Part shown: in pieces, positions 8,733 to 38,586 of the stretch | Position numbering within the stretch: position 1 is the first letter of the stretch | Layout of the letters: each line of letters starts with the position of its first letter | From: Escherichia phage vB_EcoM_G50 | DNA: 64,000 bases | Reading direction: 5' to 3' (one strand) | Sequence record: NC_054917.1 | Program-made: the position numbers and the translations under genes | Notes under the pieces: generated by a model | Told to the model about the DNA's origin: nothing | Seen by the model: only the letters and a program-made list of their open reading frames with translations | Database searches by the model: none

Positions 8733-9203
8733 TTAATCATGTTTCCACACCCCATCGGTATTTGACCAAAGTCGCTGATTATCTGATCCTCGCCACAGCT
8801 TTTTGGTCGGAAGATTTTTCTCATACTTCCCATCAATAATAACATCAACATATTTAAGCATTTCTAGTTGTTTAATATCTTCAAATTTATATCCTGTCCA
8901 CAACCAAATGCTTTTATTGGGATAAAGATTTTTTACTGTTTGAACAATGCAATGAACAACATCTCGGTTATCAGGATAGAGAGGGTCTCCTCCAGTTATA
9001 GTTAATCCTTCTATATAATCATTATTCAAACATTCAATTAATTGTTCTAGTGTTTCACCAGTGAATGGAACGCCATTTCTAGCGTTCCATGTTGATTTAT
9101 TATAACACCCTTCACATTTATGCAAACAACCTGTAACGAAAAGAACGACCCTGCATCCAGGGCCATTCACAAAATCGCAAGGATAAAATCTATCATAATT
9201 CAT
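8733..9203 (-). CDS. nrdG: Anaerobic ribonucleotide reductase activating protein (radical SAM)
   Basis: 156 aa; Cys cluster CLHKCEGCYN consistent with a radical-SAM activase; 4-nt overlap with nrdD. Confidence 0.9.
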   Translation of the reverse strand: MNYDRFYPCDFVNGPGCRVVLFVTGCLHKCEGCYNKSTWNARNGVPFTGETLEQLIECLNNDYIEGLTITGGDPLYPDNRDVVHCIVQTVKNLYPNKSIWLWTGYKFEDIKQLEMLKYVDVIIDGKYEKNLPTKKLWRGSDNQRLWSNTDGVWKHD

Positions 9204-11017
9204 TGGTGTTTAACCCTATGCATGATTTCTTTATTTTTGCCGAGATTAAATCCACGTTCGTTCGGATTTCCCAAATAACCACAAGTTCTTCTTATTGTGT
9301 TCATCTTTTTAGGATCAGTTTCTCCACAAATAGAACAAACAAACCCGTTTTCAGTAGGAGTCATTTCATGGGTACTTCCACACGTAAAACATTTATCTAC
9401 TGGCATGTTAACACCAAAATAATCTAAATGTTGTGCAGCATAATCCCATACAGCCTCAAGACCTTTTAGGTTATTTTTCATATCAGGAAGTTCAACATAA
9501 GAAATGTGACCGCCTGTCGCAATGAAATGATATGGGGCTTCGCGAGAAATCTTTTCAAACGGAGTAATATTTTCTTCTACTGAAACGTGGAAACTGTTAG
9601 TGTACCAGCCTTTATCAGTAACATCCTTTACACTTCCATATTTCTCAGTATCAAGTTTACAGAAGCGATAACAAAGGTTTTCAGCAGGTGTAGAATACAA
9701 GCTAAAAGCAAAACCAGTTCTTTCAGTCCACTGCTTAAGACGAGCATTCATTTTAGTTAAAATTTCCTGTCCAATATCACGACCGACAAGAATATTCAAT
9801 TCGTGAATACCAATATATCCTAAGGACACTGAACTTCTACCGTTTTTAAATAACTCAATTATATCATCATCGGGTTTAAGACGAACCCCGAATGCACCTT
9901 CTTGGTAAAGAATAGGAGCAACAGTAGCTTTAACTCCTTTTAATGAACTAATTCTACACATCAATGCTTCAAAACACAAATCCATTCGTTCATTGAACAA
10001 TTCGGCAAATTTCTGTTCATTGAACTGTGTTCCAATATAAGAATCTAATGCAATACGAGGAAGATTCAGTGTTACAACGCCAAGATTATTACGTCCATCA
10101 AGAATTTCATTACCAGTCGAATCTTTCCATACGCTCAAGAAACTACGACAACCCATTGGAGAAACAGGAATAGATGAACCTGTGATAGCTTTATTATTCT
10201 TAGCTGAAATAATATCAGGATACATTCTTTTACTTGCACACTCTAGAGCAAGCTGCTTAATATCATAGTTCGGATCGTCTTTATAAAGATTGACACCCTC
10301 TTCAACGAACATAACAAGCTTAGGAAAAATAGGAGTTATCCCATCACGACCAAGGCCTTTAATACGATTTTTCAGAATTGCTTTCTGAATCATTCGTTCA
10401 GTCCAGTCAGTTCCCGTGCCAAATGTAATTGTTACAAAAGGCGTTTGTCCGTTTGAACTAAAGAGAGTATTTACTTCATATTCATAAGCTTGGAATGCAT
10501 CGTATACGTCTTTTTCTGTTTTAGATTGGGCATAATTCAATGCATCTGCGATTTGCCATTTTTCCGCGTCCTCAATATGTTTTGCATAGGTGCGTTTAAC
10601 ATAAGGAGAAAGTACTTTATCTACATTCGCAAAAGTTGTTCCGCCATATTGATGAGAAGCAACCTGCGCAGTAATTTGTGCCATAATTGCAGTAGCAACG
10701 CCAATTGATTTAGGAGTTTCAATCTGTGCATTACCGAGCTTAAATCCGTTCTCAAGCATTCCTTTTAAATCTACTAAACAACAATTAGTAAATGGAAGAG
10801 CAGGGGAATAATCAATATCGTGGAAATGGATAATTCCGCTTTCATGCGCTTTCATAATAAAAGACGGGACCATATTTTTGGCAATGTGTTTAGACACAAT
10901 ACCAGCCATAAGGTCCCGTTGAGTTGGAAAAACACGAGAATCTTTATTAGCATTCTCGTTCAAAAGGTCTTTATTAGTTTTATGAATTAATCCTTCAATT
11001 TCTTTTTCAATTGTCAT
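9200..11017 (-). CDS. nrdD: Anaerobic ribonucleoside-triphosphate reductase (class III)
   Basis: 605 aa uninterrupted; C-terminal glycyl-radical motif RRTCGYLG and Cys-rich zinc-ribbon region. Confidence 0.95.
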   Translation of the reverse strand: MTIEKEIEGLIHKTNKDLLNENANKDSRVFPTQRDLMAGIVSKHIAKNMVPSFIMKAHESGIIHFHDIDYSPALPFTNCCLVDLKGMLENGFKLGNAQIETPKSIGVATAIMAQITAQVASHQYGGTTFANVDKVLSPYVKRTYAKHIEDAEKWQIADALNYAQSKTEKDVYDAFQAYEYEVNTLFSSNGQTPFVTITFGTGTDWTERMIQKAILKNRIKGLGRDGITPIFPKLVMFVEEGVNLYKDDPNYDIKQLALECASKRMYPDIISAKNNKAITGSSIPVSPMGCRSFLSVWKDSTGNEILDGRNNLGVVTLNLPRIALDSYIGTQFNEQKFAELFNERMDLCFEALMCRISSLKGVKATVAPILYQEGAFGVRLKPDDDIIELFKNGRSSVSLGYIGIHELNILVGRDIGQEILTKMNARLKQWTERTGFAFSLYSTPAENLCYRFCKLDTEKYGSVKDVTDKGWYTNSFHVSVEENITPFEKISREAPYHFIATGGHISYVELPDMKNNLKGLEAVWDYAAQHLDYFGVNMPVDKCFTCGSTHEMTPTENGFVCSICGETDPKKMNTIRRTCGYLGNPNERGFNLGKNKEIMHRVKHQ

Positions 11018-11487
11018 TTTAAACTCTTTCTAAGCTGCTTCTTAAATGAAGCTATTAATTGTGTTTTAGTGTCAGATTCATTATATTCAAATCCTCTTTG
11101 AAGCATCTCAGCCATCATTTCCTCTTTTCCTAAACGAGAAAATTCCTTTGATTTATCTCCAACGAAGTTAGGGTGAATATTATTTTGGGTGTAATCGGAT
11201 TTTAAATAAGTAAGTAAATTTTCTAACCATTCAAGATAATCAACGCCTTGTCCCTTTAAGCCGGAACGATTAAATTTGTGCTTCATTTGACCTTCCGCTG
11301 CATTGCAGAGATTACAGAGCAATCCACGTACCTTTCCTGCTTTTGGTCCATTTAATTCATGATCATGGTCAAGGTGATTAGCTTGAACATCATGATTTAG
11401 TTCTCGTTGGCAAATTAAGCATTTACCGTTTTGTGCATTATAAAATTTCTGTTTTTCTTCTTTATATAATTTGCCAGTCAATAACAT
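11014..11487 (-). CDS. 49: Endonuclease VII (Holliday-junction resolvase)
   Basis: 157 aa; zinc-binding region CLICQRELNHDVQANHLDHDHELNGPKAGKVRGLLCNLCN matches T4 endo VII as recalled; ATGA overlap with nrdD. Confidence 0.9.
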   Translation of the reverse strand: MLLTGKLYKEEKQKFYNAQNGKCLICQRELNHDVQANHLDHDHELNGPKAGKVRGLLCNLCNAAEGQMKHKFNRSGLKGQGVDYLEWLENLLTYLKSDYTQNNIHPNFVGDKSKEFSRLGKEEMMAEMLQRGFEYNESDTKTQLIASFKKQLRKSLK

Positions 11488-28437: not shown

Positions 28438-28716
28438 TTATTCTTTAAATCTAATCAATTTATTCATAGACTTTGAAACTTCTGCACGAACCTCATGTAG
28501 GTTTTTGAGTTGCTCAAGACGCTGCTCATAGTAAGCAATTTCATCTTCTTCGAGACAGTCCTGTGAATCTTCTTTAAGATAGCGTGCATAATCCTGGAAA
28601 GCGTTACGGACTACTTCCTGGAAGTCATCAAGACTTTGAATTTTCTTAGGAGCAACAGATACACGACGAGGGGCAGTATAATACTCATAACCAAACCCTG
28701 CGCTTAATTGAGCCAT
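28438..28716 (-). CDS. Hypothetical protein
   Basis: Track ORF shortened to internal ATG ([13 protein letters not shown]), giving a TAATG junction with the upstream ORF. Confidence 0.45.
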
Positions 28717-28982
28717 TAATATTTTTCCTCTGGTTGGAACACAGCACGACAAGCCCACATACTGGCTTCTTTGAGTTTCGTTTTAGCAATAGTTAACTGA
28801 TCGAGGCTTTCAGCATAATTCTTCGCGAATTCACAGTCTTCACAATTATCTAGTGCTTCCCAAAATTCATCGTATAAAGCATCAAAGATAAGTCCTAAAC
28901 GAACTTCAGCATCTTTAATAGCATTCACTTTACCGATTTTCTCTTCAGTATGTGGCTTATAACCCTTAATATCTTCAATCAT
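28716..28982 (-). CDS. Hypothetical acidic protein (T4 vs.4/Acb2-like position; unverified)
   Basis: 88-aa ORF a few genes downstream of regB. Confidence 0.45.
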
Positions 28983-29196
28983 ATTTTACTTCCTCACCAG
29001 TACCTAAATCATATTCAACTAAACGAATAGGCTCATGAATTCCATATCCCTGAACAGAAATTTCTGTCGTAGGATAAATTCCATCAATATCACCCATATT
29101 CCATGCTTCATTAAATTGCTGTTCGCCTGAATTACTAAACCACTCGGCGAAAGCATTTAGCACATCTTTAGAACCTTCAATAATTATCTTTGCCAT
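28975..29196 (-). CDS. Hypothetical protein
   Basis: 73-aa ORF; overlaps neighbours by a few nt. Confidence 0.45.
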   Translation of the reverse strand: MAKIIIEGSKDVLNAFAEWFSNSGEQQFNEAWNMGDIDGIYPTTEISVQGYGIHEPIRLVEYDLGTGEEVKYD

Positions 29197-29558
29197 TACA
29201 GACTCTCGGTAAAGGTACGAGCGATAACGTCGCGCTGCTGTTCCGGAGTCAGAGAGTTAAAGCGAACTGCATAACCGGATACACGGATGGTCAGCTGCGG
29301 ATATTTTTCCGGATGCTTAACTGCATCTTCCAGAGTTTCACGACGCAGAACGTTAACGTTCAGGTGTTGACCACCTTCAATTTTAACTGTAGGCTGTTGC
29401 TCAATTTCAATTTCACGGGCATGCAAACCGTAGAAAATTTCTGGGTCTACAAAAGAGTCCTCTTTAAAGGTTTTAGAAACAATAATTCGTGCTTGAATAC
29501 CATCTTCAAAATAAATAGTACCTTTGTGTGTGCCTTCAAGAATTTGATATGCTTTCAT
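29196..29558 (-). CDS. Autonomous glycyl-radical cofactor (GrcA/YfiD-like)
   Basis: 120 aa; C-terminal about 60 residues ([60 protein letters not shown]) match E. coli GrcA as recalled, including glycyl-radical site RVSGYAV; locally GC-rich DNA. Confidence 0.9.
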
Positions 29559-29565
29559 ATAAACC

Positions 29566-29895
29566 TCAATTAGAAAATAAATTTATCCAAGATTGTTCTT
29601 TAATTAAAAATGGCTCAGAATCATATGCCATTAAACTCTGTGTGATTAGTCCTTTAAAAGGCCCATCAATAAATTCCATAGTAAAATATGGAATTTTATT
29701 CATTAGCCGTGCATTAGGAGCCGTGCACAAAACTCTGCATCCTTTGAATACGCCTTTTTGTAATTTGTATTGCTTAGGATAAAATTCGCTCAAAATGTTA
29801 TTTTTTGCTAAAATTTCAAAATGATTCACCAATTTATTTTTAATAGTTTTTGGCGAAAAATAGAGATATTCGAAAAGCTGAGTGTCTGTCATCAT
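29566..29895 (-). CDS. Hypothetical protein
   Basis: Track ORF shortened to internal start [10 protein letters not shown], giving a 4-nt overlap with the upstream gene. Confidence 0.45.
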
Positions 29896-30571: not shown

Positions 30572-31045
30572 TTATTTGAACGATTTAACGTACTGAATAG
30601 AACCTTTACTATTCACGAAAGCGATTTTACCATTTTTATTATACATGGTAGCAGTACGCTGATAGCCATAAGTTTGCTTACCAGATTGATAACCAACTAA
30701 TGCAAAATTATCTTCACCCATTTTATTCTGTTTAGCGCGAATGCGTTCATGACCATGTGCCATAAGAACCTTAGCATCACCAGTTGCAATGGATCGACGA
30801 GTTTTTTCATCTTCAACTGTATTAACAAAGTCGTCAAATGAATCAAATTTAGCATGAGATTTATTATACAGTTTTCCATCTACTGCATAATTATATCCCT
30901 GTACATCCATCTCAACTTCTGTACCATCATCCAATACAGCAGTGATTTTCTGTCCTTTTTTAAATTTCAAAAGATCAGTAAAAGATTCAGCAATAATTTG
31001 AGAATTAATAGCTGCTTCAGTAATAAATTCTTGATATGTTTTCAT
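30572..31045 (-). CDS. Internal-protein-like head protein with capsid targeting sequence
   Basis: 157 aa; N-terminus MKTYQEFITEA is the conserved T4 internal-protein targeting sequence ending in a protease-type I-x-E site; ipII/ipIII position beside e. Confidence 0.7.
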   Translation of the reverse strand: MKTYQEFITEAAINSQIIAESFTDLLKFKKGQKITAVLDDGTEVEMDVQGYNYAVDGKLYNKSHAKFDSFDDFVNTVEDEKTRRSIATGDAKVLMAHGHERIRAKQNKMGEDNFALVGYQSGKQTYGYQRTATMYNKNGKIAFVNSKGSIQYVKSFK

Positions 31046-31061
31046 GTGTATCCTTTAATTT

Positions 31062-31379
31062 TTATTCTTTAGGGAAGTTTTTAGAATATGCATCATAAAG
31101 CTTATTTCCAATACGGCGGAAAACTCTAGCCGCAAAACGATTTTCTGGGTTTTTAATCATGATTTGCATCATATAAGTACCCGCGTCAGAAAGAGCTTCT
31201 TCATAGTACCCGTTAATTTCTTTAAGAGTCCTACGTTTACCACCAGGACCATCAACAGTGATTTTCCATTTACCTGTAGAAGTGCGACTTGGCGGCTCAA
31301 CTTGTTCAATCCAGATATAACCGCCTTCTACACGTTGTCCTTGGGCAGATTCTGCAATAAATTCTTTAAACGTTTTCAT
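31062..31379 (-). CDS. Internal-protein-like head protein with capsid targeting sequence
   Basis: 105 aa; N-terminus MKTFKEFIAES; immediately downstream of e. Confidence 0.7.
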   Translation of the reverse strand: MKTFKEFIAESAQGQRVEGGYIWIEQVEPPSRTSTGKWKITVDGPGGKRRTLKEINGYYEEALSDAGTYMMQIMIKNPENRFAARVFRRIGNKLYDAYSKNFPKE

Positions 31380-37564: not shown

Positions 37565-37640
37565 TGGTCGAGGCAGTAGGGATCGAACCTACGACCTAGG
37601 ACTTAGAAGGTCCTTGCTCTTCCTTCTGAGCTATGCCCCG
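37565..37640 (-). tRNA. tRNA-Arg (anticodon UCU)
   Basis: Hand-folded 76-nt cloverleaf; anticodon loop CUUCUAA; T-loop GGUUCGAUCC; encoded CCA. Confidence 0.8.
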
Positions 37641-37644
37641 TAAT

Positions 37645-37720
37645 TGGGGTGACCGATGGGAGTCGAACCCATGACTACGAGAATCACAATCTTGAGTTCT
37701 ACCAACTGAACTACGGCCAC
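37645..37720 (-). tRNA. tRNA-His (anticodon GUG), probable
   Basis: 76-nt cloverleaf; anticodon loop UUGUGAU; discriminator C73 as in His tRNAs; one A-C mismatch in the anticodon stem; no encoded G-1. Confidence 0.6.
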
Positions 37721-37814
37721 ATTAATACCTACTCCAACAATCAAGATGTCTTCACACGAAATTAAGAGAAGAGTGATCAGTTCAACCCCGATAATCGCGT
37801 CAAGTAGATATTAA

Positions 37815-37830
37815 TGTGACAACTGTCACA
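37815..37830. repeat. Short inverted repeat TGTGACA-ac-TGTCACA in the spacer between tRNAs
   Basis: 7-bp arms with a 2-nt spacer inside a 114-nt tRNA-free gap. Confidence 0.5.
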
Positions 37831-37834
37831 AATT

Positions 37835-37909
37835 TGGCGGACGTGATAGGATTCGAACCTATAACCAATCGCTTAACAGGCGATCGCTCTGCCATTGAGC
37901 TACACATCC
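37835..37909 (-). tRNA. tRNA-Asn (anticodon GUU)
   Basis: 75-nt cloverleaf; anticodon stem-loop AUCGC-CUGUUAA-GCGAU; T-loop GGUUCGAAUCC; encoded CCA. Confidence 0.75.
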
Positions 37910-37913
37910 AAAT

Positions 37914-38000
37914 TGGTGGGGAGTGATGGAGTCGAACCACCCGAGTCGCAATGACAATGGATTTACAGTCCACACCGCTACCTCTACGGGATAACTCCCC
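37914..38000 (-). tRNA. tRNA-Tyr (anticodon GUA), long variable arm
   Basis: 87 nt; anticodon stem-loop GUGGA-CUGUAAA-UCCAU; bacterial-type long variable arm; encoded CCA. Confidence 0.75.
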
Positions 38001-38013
38001 TTAATTCTTAATT

Positions 38014-38088
38014 TGGTGGCCCTGGGTGGAATTGAACCACCATCTGGCGATTATGAGTCGCTTGCTTGAACCTTCCAGCTACAGGGCC
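38014..38088 (-). tRNA. tRNA with CAU anticodon (Ile2-type or Met)
   Basis: 75 nt; anticodon loop CUCAUAA; the position corresponds to T4 tRNA-Ile. Confidence 0.75.
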
Positions 38089-38089
38089 T

Positions 38090-38165
38090 TGGTGCTGATT
38101 GACGGAATCGAACCGCCGACCTTCTCATTACAAGTGAGTTGCTCTACCTACTAAGCTAAATCAGC
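38090..38165 (-). tRNA. tRNA-Thr (anticodon UGU)
   Basis: 76 nt; anticodon loop CUUGUAA; T-loop GGUUCGAUUCC. Confidence 0.8.
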
Positions 38166-38170
38166 AAAAC

Positions 38171-38260
38171 TGGCGGAGGCGATAGGATTTGAACCTATGA
38201 GTCGCCGGAGCGACTGCCGGTTTTCAAGACCGGTGCATTAAACCACTCTGCCACGCCTCC
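38171..38260 (-). tRNA. tRNA-Ser (anticodon UGA), long variable arm
   Basis: 90 nt; anticodon stem-loop CCGGU-CUUGAAA-ACCGG; long variable arm. Confidence 0.85.
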
Positions 38261-38261
38261 A

Positions 38262-38336
38262 GTCTCCATACAAGGATTTGAACCTTGGACCTCCTGATCC
38301 CAAATCAGGCGCTCTACCAAACTGAGCTACACGGAG
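38262..38336 (-). tRNA. tRNA-Pro (anticodon UGG), CCA not encoded
   Basis: Acceptor stem CUCCGUG/UAUGGAG; anticodon loop UUUGGGA; 3' end lacks encoded CCA. Confidence 0.8.
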
Positions 38337-38346
38337 TAAATTAAAT

Positions 38347-38420
<74 letters not shown>

Positions 38421-38425
38421 AAATT

Positions 38426-38512
38426 TGGTGCGAGAAGTGGGACTCGAACCCACAAGGAAATCATTCCGCAGCATTTTAAGTGCTGTGCCTTTACCAATTT
38501 GACCATTCTCGC
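38426..38512 (-). tRNA. tRNA-Leu (anticodon UAA), long variable arm
   Basis: 87 nt; anticodon stem-loop CAGCA-CUUAAAA-UGCUG. Confidence 0.85.
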
Positions 38513-38513
38513 G

Positions 38514-38586
38514 CTGGGAATAAAGGACTCGAACCTTTGCATCCTGGAATCAAAATCCAGTGCCTTACCAACTTGGCTAATTCCCA
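38514..38586 (-). tRNA. tRNA-Gln (anticodon UUG), abuts tRNA-Leu
   Basis: 5' UGGGAAU acceptor; anticodon stem-loop CUGGA-UUUUGAU-UCCAG; 3' end is 1-2 nt from the Leu 5' end (dimeric precursor arrangement). Confidence 0.85.

Follow-up and report, generated by a model that had tools for sequence, protein, structure and literature searches.

The glycyl-radical domain of the T4-type phage gene vs.6 was probably overwritten by Escherichia coli grcA

The vs.6 gene and its genomic context

We analysed a window of 64,000 nt, that is, the whole stretch of DNA presented here, and focused on a minus-strand ORF of 120 aa with exact boundaries from ATG to TAA. The gene, its radical site and its putative ribosome-binding site are located as follows:

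29196..29558, minus strand: vs.6, the ortholog of T4 Y06I, encoding an autonomous glycyl-radical cofactor of the GrcA/YfiD type (120 aa; from the ORF, Pfam, synteny and the match to 6owr)
29274..29276, minus strand: codon of Gly95, which bears the radical and corresponds to YfiD Gly102 and PflB Gly734 (from the translation and alignments to 6owr and 1cm5)
29564..29567, minus strand: GAGG motif resembling a Shine-Dalgarno sequence, 5 nt upstream of the vs.6 ATG and overlapping the TGA stop of the vs.7-like ORF (read from the sequence)

The ORF contains the motif RVSGYAV, and the Pfam domain Gly_radical (PF01228) was detected on residues 60-101 (E = 2.5e-18). The protein matched the NMR structure of YfiD (PDB 6owr) with an E value of 9e-42, and its residues 58-120 matched PflB 697-759 (E = 5e-26, 79% identical), including the motif RVSGYAVRF. 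It is identical to the T4 ortholog at 118 of 120 residues (98.3%), and the T2 and T4 vs.6 proteins are labelled "autonomous glycyl radical cofactor GrcA" in RefSeq. With the NCBIfam GrcA equivalog model (TIGR04365) vs.6 scored 154.9 bits, below the 170-bit cut-off (233.9 bits for E. coli GrcA), because its N-terminus has diverged; by function and architecture it is a member of the GrcA/YfiD spare parts (TIGR04365, IPR011140). Both the gene and its biochemical function are already known, at textbook level for T4.

The gene order regB-vs.3-vs.4-vs.5-vs.6-vs.7, within the tk-vs-regB-e early region, is common to the window and T4, and vs.6 lies between vs.5 and vs.7, as in T2 and T4. Approximately 3 kb around the gene are 97-98% identical to the phages REP4, phiC600P9, HY03 and T2, and the window belongs to a T2/T4-like Tequatrovirus. 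The stop codon of vs.6 overlaps the ATG of the next gene (TAATG), and the GAGG motif at 29564..29567 may act as the Shine-Dalgarno sequence of vs.6. The closest well-known counterpart, T4 Vs.6/Y06I (NP_049730), has the same length, the same neighbourhood (regB, vs.3, vs.4/Acb2, vs.5, vs.6, vs.7) and the same host-identical tract, described below; it differs from the protein of the window at residue 54 (P in T4, Q here) and at residue 73, where a T4-private H replaces R.

Several other features of the window were recorded. An 88-aa ORF two genes downstream of vs.6 (28716..28982, minus strand) carries the Acb2/Tad1 hairpin domain (PF24729, E = 7e-20) and occupies the position of T4 vs.4, the anti-CBASS cyclic-nucleotide sponge Acb2. 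Between vs.8 and e, positions 30572..31379 (minus strand) hold a gene for a DUF7412/IpIV-like internal protein and a 105-aa ORF; the vs.8-e interval thus has the arrangement of T2, not the denV-ipII-ipIII arrangement of T4. Eleven tRNA genes (Arg, His, Asn, Tyr, Met-CAT, Thr, Ser, Pro, Gly, Leu and Gln) lie at 37565..38586 on the minus strand, more than the eight of T4, and a 101-kb plasmid of E. coli O111:H8 (NZ_CP077546), possibly a phage-plasmid, matches the tRNA-Tyr region at 90.5% identity.

A host-identical tract in the 3' half of the gene

We further compared vs.6 with E. coli grcA and divided the gene into three parts:

29381..29558, minus strand: 5' part, codons 1-59/60, a diverged homologue of the GrcA N-terminal region, GC 0.345 and GC3 0.22 (from hhalign on the N-terminal segments)
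29209..29380, minus strand: tract of 172 nt equal to the major E. coli grcA allele, probably a host-derived conversion tract (from pairwise alignment; the only E. coli chromosomal match)
29196..29208, minus strand: 3' tail ACC GAG AGT CTG TAA with phage-type synonymous codons, the right end of the tract (from comparison with phages and hosts)

Residues 61-120 of vs.6 are 100% identical to E. coli GrcA 68-127, which bears out the statement in an earlier note on this DNA that the C-terminal ~60 residues match GrcA. The nucleotide alignment which that note had proposed located a breakpoint at ORF nt ~178. Upstream of it the identity to grcA is ~50%, barely above that of shuffled controls (0.465 +/- 0.018), and downstream follows an unbroken run of 172 identical nt (ORF nt 179-350, window 29209..29380), after which three synonymous differences fall in the last 13 nt. 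Over ORF nt 179-363, vs.6 is 98.4% identical to grcA of the best-matching E. coli and 95-99% identical in all 5426 complete genomes. The tract encodes the structured glycyl-radical domain (equivalent to YfiD ~67-124 and PflB ~699-756), and a megablast search of the entire 64-kb window against the E. coli collection returned it as the sole chromosomal match. At the ~85% identity of other phage lineages with the same protein, the probability of 172 straight matches is about 7e-13.

The composition of the gene changes along its length. GC is 0.494 in the tract, compared with 0.345 in the 5' part and 0.351 in the window, a GC content this high is reached by only 0.64% of 174-nt windows, and GC3 is 0.43 in the tract and 0.22 in the 5' part. 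The elevated GC that the earlier note had pointed out is therefore real, but its value as a sign of capture is limited: in most other phage lineages, where the DNA of this domain is not identical to that of a host, its GC is 0.41-0.48 as well (0.31-0.34 in the lineages richest in AT), so that the rise is largely a property of the domain. We accordingly set GC aside as proof of recent capture, since lineages without host identity show the same GC and GC3. Codon choice is the better compositional sign of host origin. In the codon-usage comparison, which the note had also suggested, the tract uses the host-type codons CTG for all five Leu and CCG for all three Pro, whereas the corresponding counts in seven neighbouring genes are 3/71 and 4/25.

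The right end of the tract returns to phage-type sequence. The codons GAG AGT are common to the Mosigvirus, Slopekvirus and Pseudotevenvirus copies and absent in E. coli and its closest relatives in our panel, the complete 15-nt 3' end of vs.6 was found in 0 of 81 host grcA genes, and the sequence downstream of the stop codon is phage-like. In T4 the right end reads ACT GAA AGT TTG, as against ACC GAG AGT CTG in the window. The idea that GAG AGT was kept as a Shine-Dalgarno sequence for the overlapping downstream gene was dropped, as T4 has GAA there.

The N-terminal half is a diverged GrcA arm

BLASTP, phmmer and the NCBIfam GrcA model gave alignments reaching vs.6 residue 20-22. When only the N-terminal segments of 14 phage and 66 host sequences were compared with hhalign, the two sets aligned over 60 columns with 97% probability (E = 8.6e-11, 28% identity). 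The N-terminal half is thus not unrelated phage DNA but an old version of the GrcA N-terminal region that has since diverged. This runs against the earlier note, in which the N-terminal ~60 residues were held to be unrelated to GrcA; the note itself had named an N-terminal half that also aligns with GrcA as the observation that would speak against its reading, and this is what hhalign found, across all 60 columns. The dN/dS of the 5' part between Tequatrovirus and Mosigvirus is about 0.1, a value that points to purifying selection on the N-terminal half in phages.

Compared with E. coli GrcA (YfiD, 6OWR), a stand-alone protein of ~14 kDa, vs.6 therefore has an identical C-terminal stretch of 60 residues including the radical loop and a homologous N-terminal region, which is ~28% identical and 7 residues shorter. 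The two genes differ in setting: E. coli grcA occupies the chromosomal ung-grcA-eamB locus, while vs.6 belongs to an early-gene cluster of a virulent phage.

grcA-like genes are widespread in phages, and host-identical tracts are confined to two genera

The gene has been reported in all of six diverse T4-like genomes (PMC1524935). A tblastn search extended the family to 1590 phage records, T5-like, jumbo and Aeromonas phages among them, and we assembled a panel of 16 GenBank phage copies and 80 IMG/VR loci for comparison with 81 host grcA genes. In this panel only the Tequatrovirus and Mosigvirus copies were 96-98% identical to a host gene, and that host was always Escherichia. No host-identical tract above 92% was detected in the other lineages (80 IMG/VR loci and 13 GenBank phages against 81 host genes). 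At a threshold of >=95% identity to grcA, ~637 phage records were recovered, all of Tequatrovirus and Mosigvirus and all beginning at grcA nt 199-202, and a full-length host grcA was found in none, with 0 of 751 records covering >=80% of the host gene.

The C-terminal protein sequence is identical in Slopekvirus and Pseudotevenvirus and differs at few residues in Jiaodavirus. At the nucleotide level these three lineages are 83-88% identical to any of the 81 hosts, with a dS of 0.8-1.6 to E. coli, and where the protein is identical, 26-29 of ~44 synonymous sites are changed relative to E. coli. The same two-part layout with a near-invariant radical domain recurs in Jiaodavirus, Slopekvirus, Pseudotevenvirus, Krischvirus, Tequintavirus/T5-like, jumbo Eneladusvirus-like and Aeromonas phages. 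Unlike vs.6, these grcA-like genes carry no tract of nucleotide identity to a host (68-88% to the closest of the 81), and several of them are linked to nrdD/nrdG. In the T4-like, T5-like and jumbo phages with nearly the same protein, synonymous sites are saturated, and identity to any host is 70-88%.

Two further cases deserve separate mention. In essentially all sampled T5-like phages (L139-L164, T5-like/Demerecviridae contigs, and L092) the grcA-like gene encodes 122 aa, its N-terminal half is distinct, its radical domain is only 73-75% identical in nucleotides to any host, and a small Cys-rich ORF follows it. The 19-kb IMG/VR contig L125 carries a 150-aa grcA-like ORF whose radical-domain DNA is 91% identical to Yersinia grcA; as the sole other lineage with raised host similarity, it may represent an older host patch or host sequence in a viral bin.

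Host DNA probably replaced a domain that the phage gene already had

Given these data, we consider it very probable that vs.6 of T4 type, a GrcA/YfiD spare part for PflB, is an old phage gene whose structured domain was overwritten by recombination with E. coli grcA. In the mechanism that we propose, E. coli grcA would have replaced the DNA of the structured domain in Tequatrovirus and Mosigvirus by homologous (homeologous) recombination, the left limit of the patch being set where homology between phage and host starts, just 5' of EGGQH, and its right limit falling in the last four codons. The tract is 97-98% identical to E. coli and 92% identical to Citrobacter, and its distances to 80 other host grcA genes correlate with those of E. 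coli's own gene at r = 0.992. Because the tract distances mirror those of E. coli so closely, the transfer ran from host to phage and the tract falls inside Escherichia. Moreover, a two-part vs.6 exists in lineages without host nucleotide identity, and host DNA therefore replaced a pre-existing homologous domain. The phage-type last codons, the phage-like downstream sequence and the fixed left start look like the signature of such a homologous replacement.

The earlier note had instead proposed a relatively recent capture of the 3' half of host grcA, fused to a phage-derived 5' part. The host origin and the recent entry stand, as the DNA is that of E. coli (r = 0.992), but it took the place of an existing domain and made no new gene; the fusion does not stand, for the 5' part is itself diverged GrcA and the same layout is found in T4-like, T5-like and jumbo phages. 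An illegitimate capture of this kind, creating a new chimeric gene from the grcA 3' half and unrelated phage sequence, would explain the sharp breakpoint at ORF nt ~178, the ~50% identity upstream that barely exceeds shuffled sequence, and the step in GC/GC3 from 0.345/0.22 to 0.494/0.43. We nevertheless regard it as very unlikely, since the N-terminal half is homologous to GrcA over its full length, since the same two-part gene in lineages without host nucleotide identity indicates that the gene predates the patch, and since the phage-type last ~10 nt fit replacement inside a homologue and not an end-joined fragment. Even less credible, and almost certainly wrong, is a history with no recent transfer to the phage, whether it invokes extreme purifying selection on an ancient shared gene or a transfer from phage to E. 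coli. Such a history can draw on the near-constancy of the protein domain (dN about 0) among enterobacterial phages and hosts. However, identical or near-identical protein is encoded at 83-88% nucleotide identity elsewhere, so selection on the protein cannot explain 172 matches out of 172, and the 26-29 differences at ~44 synonymous sites in lineages with an identical protein likewise speak against it. The E. coli tract also diverges normally from Citrobacter (92%) and Salmonella (83%) while the phage tract nests with E. coli, and the host codons of the tract are seldom used in the phage genes around it. No paper on this host patch at the nucleotide level turned up in full-text searches; the main T4 reviews lay outside the scope of these searches, and prior notice is possible.

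One conversion or several

We then examined whether replacement of the domain by host DNA might have happened more than once. Comparison of vs.6 between the window and a Mosigvirus copy (L102) gave 17 differences within nt 39-170, full identity over nt 171-350, and further differences at nt 351 and 360; the flanks of the two are 70-85% identical. Synonymous differences number 11 of 36.7 sites in the 5' part and 0 of 43 in the tract (Fisher, P = 8e-5). Between Slopekvirus and Pseudotevenvirus, synonymous change in the radical domain is 2-3 times slower; if the tract is allowed such a 2-3 times lower rate, the contrast gives P = 0.001-0.012. The block of identity between the two genera has nearly the same ends as the host-identical block, the offset being at most 8 nt at the left end and 1 nt at the right end, so the patch should be younger than the split between Tequatrovirus and Mosigvirus. 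The coincident boundaries would be explained most simply by an independent conversion in each genus.

Variation at the 3' boundary was also observed within Tequatrovirus alone, where four synonymous sites within 10 nt form seven haplotypes and two pairs of sites fail the four-gamete test, in a breakpoint analysis of 19 copies, which is a small sample. In T4 the host state extends two codons beyond that of T2, the two being otherwise identical except for the T4-private R73H. Among individual copies, the host tract of Escherichia phage UFV-AREG1 (L178) is shorter and gives way to phage-like bases at each end, and its protein has the change E117K; the copy of OES_C-2 (L177) has lost 6 nt in frame immediately 5' of the tract (EIEIEQQP to EIETQP), and its 3' end is almost entirely of host type. 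Tract variation might also stem from more than one E. coli donor allele, but this idea found no support: the Mosigvirus-private SNPs of the tract match none of the 5426 E. coli genomes (best 98.8%), which marks them as mutations that arose later in the phages, on the background of the major host allele.

From these comparisons, at least two conversions would seem to have roughly even odds. A more specific form, in which the grcA of the infected E. coli repeatedly re-templates the domain through recombination of host DNA fragments with the modified DNA of a virulent phage, independently in the two genera and limited by the ends of homology, would amount to concerted evolution of host and virus; we put it forward tentatively, as a reading slightly below an even chance. 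Alternatively, one conversion followed by transfer of the patch from phage to phage, or an unusually strong synonymous constraint, may account for the pattern. A single conversion, before the split of the genera or in one genus with later spread between phages, and with the 3' diversity as a product of ordinary mutation and recombination, is a serious though less probable alternative. It sits well with the left breakpoint, which is the same in ~637 records, with tract variants that each occur as private singletons against the background of the major E. coli allele and do not correspond to alleles of E. coli, with a domain that is 2-3 times slower at synonymous sites in other lineages too, and with the free recombination of T-even phages. 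It has difficulty, by contrast, with zero differences at nt 171-350 between genera whose flanks are 70-88% identical, as phage-to-phage exchange has no reason to stop exactly where host homology ends; and the seven haplotypes on four sites within 10 nt, together with the two failed four-gamete tests, point to repeated boundary events.

vs.6 as a spare part for pyruvate formate-lyase

The biochemistry of the T4 protein provides the functional frame for vs.6. YfiD and T4 Y06I are the two experimentally validated spare parts of pyruvate formate-lyase (PFL), and Wagner et al. 2001 (PMID 11444864), as described in PMC8683613, showed that T4 Y06I rescues O2-cleaved PFL. Oxygen cleaves PflB at its radical Gly734; the spare part binds the cleaved enzyme, the PFL-activating enzyme installs a glycyl radical, and activity returns (PMC8683613). 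YfiD 61-127 duplicates the fold of PFL 693-759, and the disordered YfiD residues 1-60 are required for binding to cleaved PFL and for efficient radical installation (PMC8683613). Since residues 61-120 of vs.6 equal GrcA and the layout of YfiD is as described there, vs.6 can be read as a docking and radical domain copied without change, joined to a diverged recognition arm of its own. The part of PflB that it replaces is the C-terminal domain (~693-759; PDB 1CM5, 2PFL), to which vs.6 58-120 was aligned; PflB is an enzyme of 759 residues, whereas vs.6 lacks the catalytic barrel and is active only when bound to cleaved PflB.

Accordingly worded for the phage studied here, the mechanism would have host PflA place a radical on Gly95 of vs.6, the C-terminal domain (~61-120) stand in for the PflB radical domain lost through O2 cleavage at Gly734 and so restore activity, and the diverged N-terminal half aid binding to cleaved PflB. 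Activation, domain replacement and PflB binding have been shown in vitro for the T4 protein (PMC8683613). The suggestion of the earlier note that the gene product could rescue PflB thus coincides with what Wagner et al. 2001 (via PMC8683613) published for the T4 ortholog. During microaerobic infection with host genes shut off, vs.6 might sustain the flow through PFL to acetyl-CoA/ATP and formate, and this formate could serve as reductant for the phage's own NrdD/NrdG. An in vivo role of vs.6 in infection was not found in the literature searched.

Genes for an anaerobic ribonucleotide reductase (RNR) are present in the window, with nrdD/nrdG at 8733..11017 and the NrdD ORF at 9200..11017. In the minus-strand stretch 8733..11487, 18 kb from vs.6, nrdG (radical SAM activase), nrdD (605 aa, NRDD and Gly_radical domains) and endonuclease VII stand in a row. 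Class III RNRs of the formate type take formate as their reductant (PMC11226230). In other phages the two functions lie close together: in the jumbo phages L087 (Salmonella phage PHA46), L121 and L123 a grcA-like gene lies between or next to nrdD and nrdG, and the gene order in L138 is nrdD-nrdG-grcA-like-glutaredoxin-like. T4-type NrdD presumably belongs to the formate-dependent group. This recurrent synteny suggests that PFL may supply formate to phage NrdD.

The same synteny, the presence of nrdD/nrdG in the window and a speculation in PMC1524935 on a role in nucleotide metabolism could also be taken to mean that vs.6 serves the phage RNR directly, as a spare radical domain of NrdD or a substrate or partner of NrdG, and not host PflB. 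We judge this improbable. BLASTP of vs.6 against the NrdD of the window (9200..11017) gave E = 2.6, that is, no significant similarity, and the radical loops were unaligned, whereas PflB 697-759 matches at E = 5e-26; vs.6 was therefore rejected as an NrdD spare part, and the proposal of the earlier note that it might rescue the phage's own NrdD is left without sequence support. The domain is, moreover, identical to that of GrcA and 79% identical to PflB 697-759, the T4 protein has been shown to reconstitute cleaved PFL, and 18 kb separate vs.6 from nrdD/nrdG in the window. The synteny elsewhere is explained equally well by PFL providing formate for NrdD.

Implications

Phages of the T4 type are strictly virulent, degrade host DNA and modify their own. 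A virulent phage that destroys the DNA of its host nonetheless has 172 nt identical to a host housekeeping gene, the sole such stretch in 64 kb. This stretch covers exactly the domain that docks into the host enzyme, and it was apparently refreshed after two phage genera had diverged. The linkage of grcA-like genes with nrdD-nrdG suggests a metabolic rationale, in which formate produced by PFL is consumed by the anaerobic ribonucleotide reductase of the phage. As the gene and its function were known before, the value added here is evolutionary detail, and host-templated conversion is a modest evolutionary curiosity. Concerted evolution, if true, would mean that the phage copy is held at the host allele and at host codon usage. 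If the replacement is recurrent, vs.6 would offer a convenient marker for measuring recombination from host to phage, and a clean natural case of host-templated gene conversion that matches a viral "spare part" to its host target.
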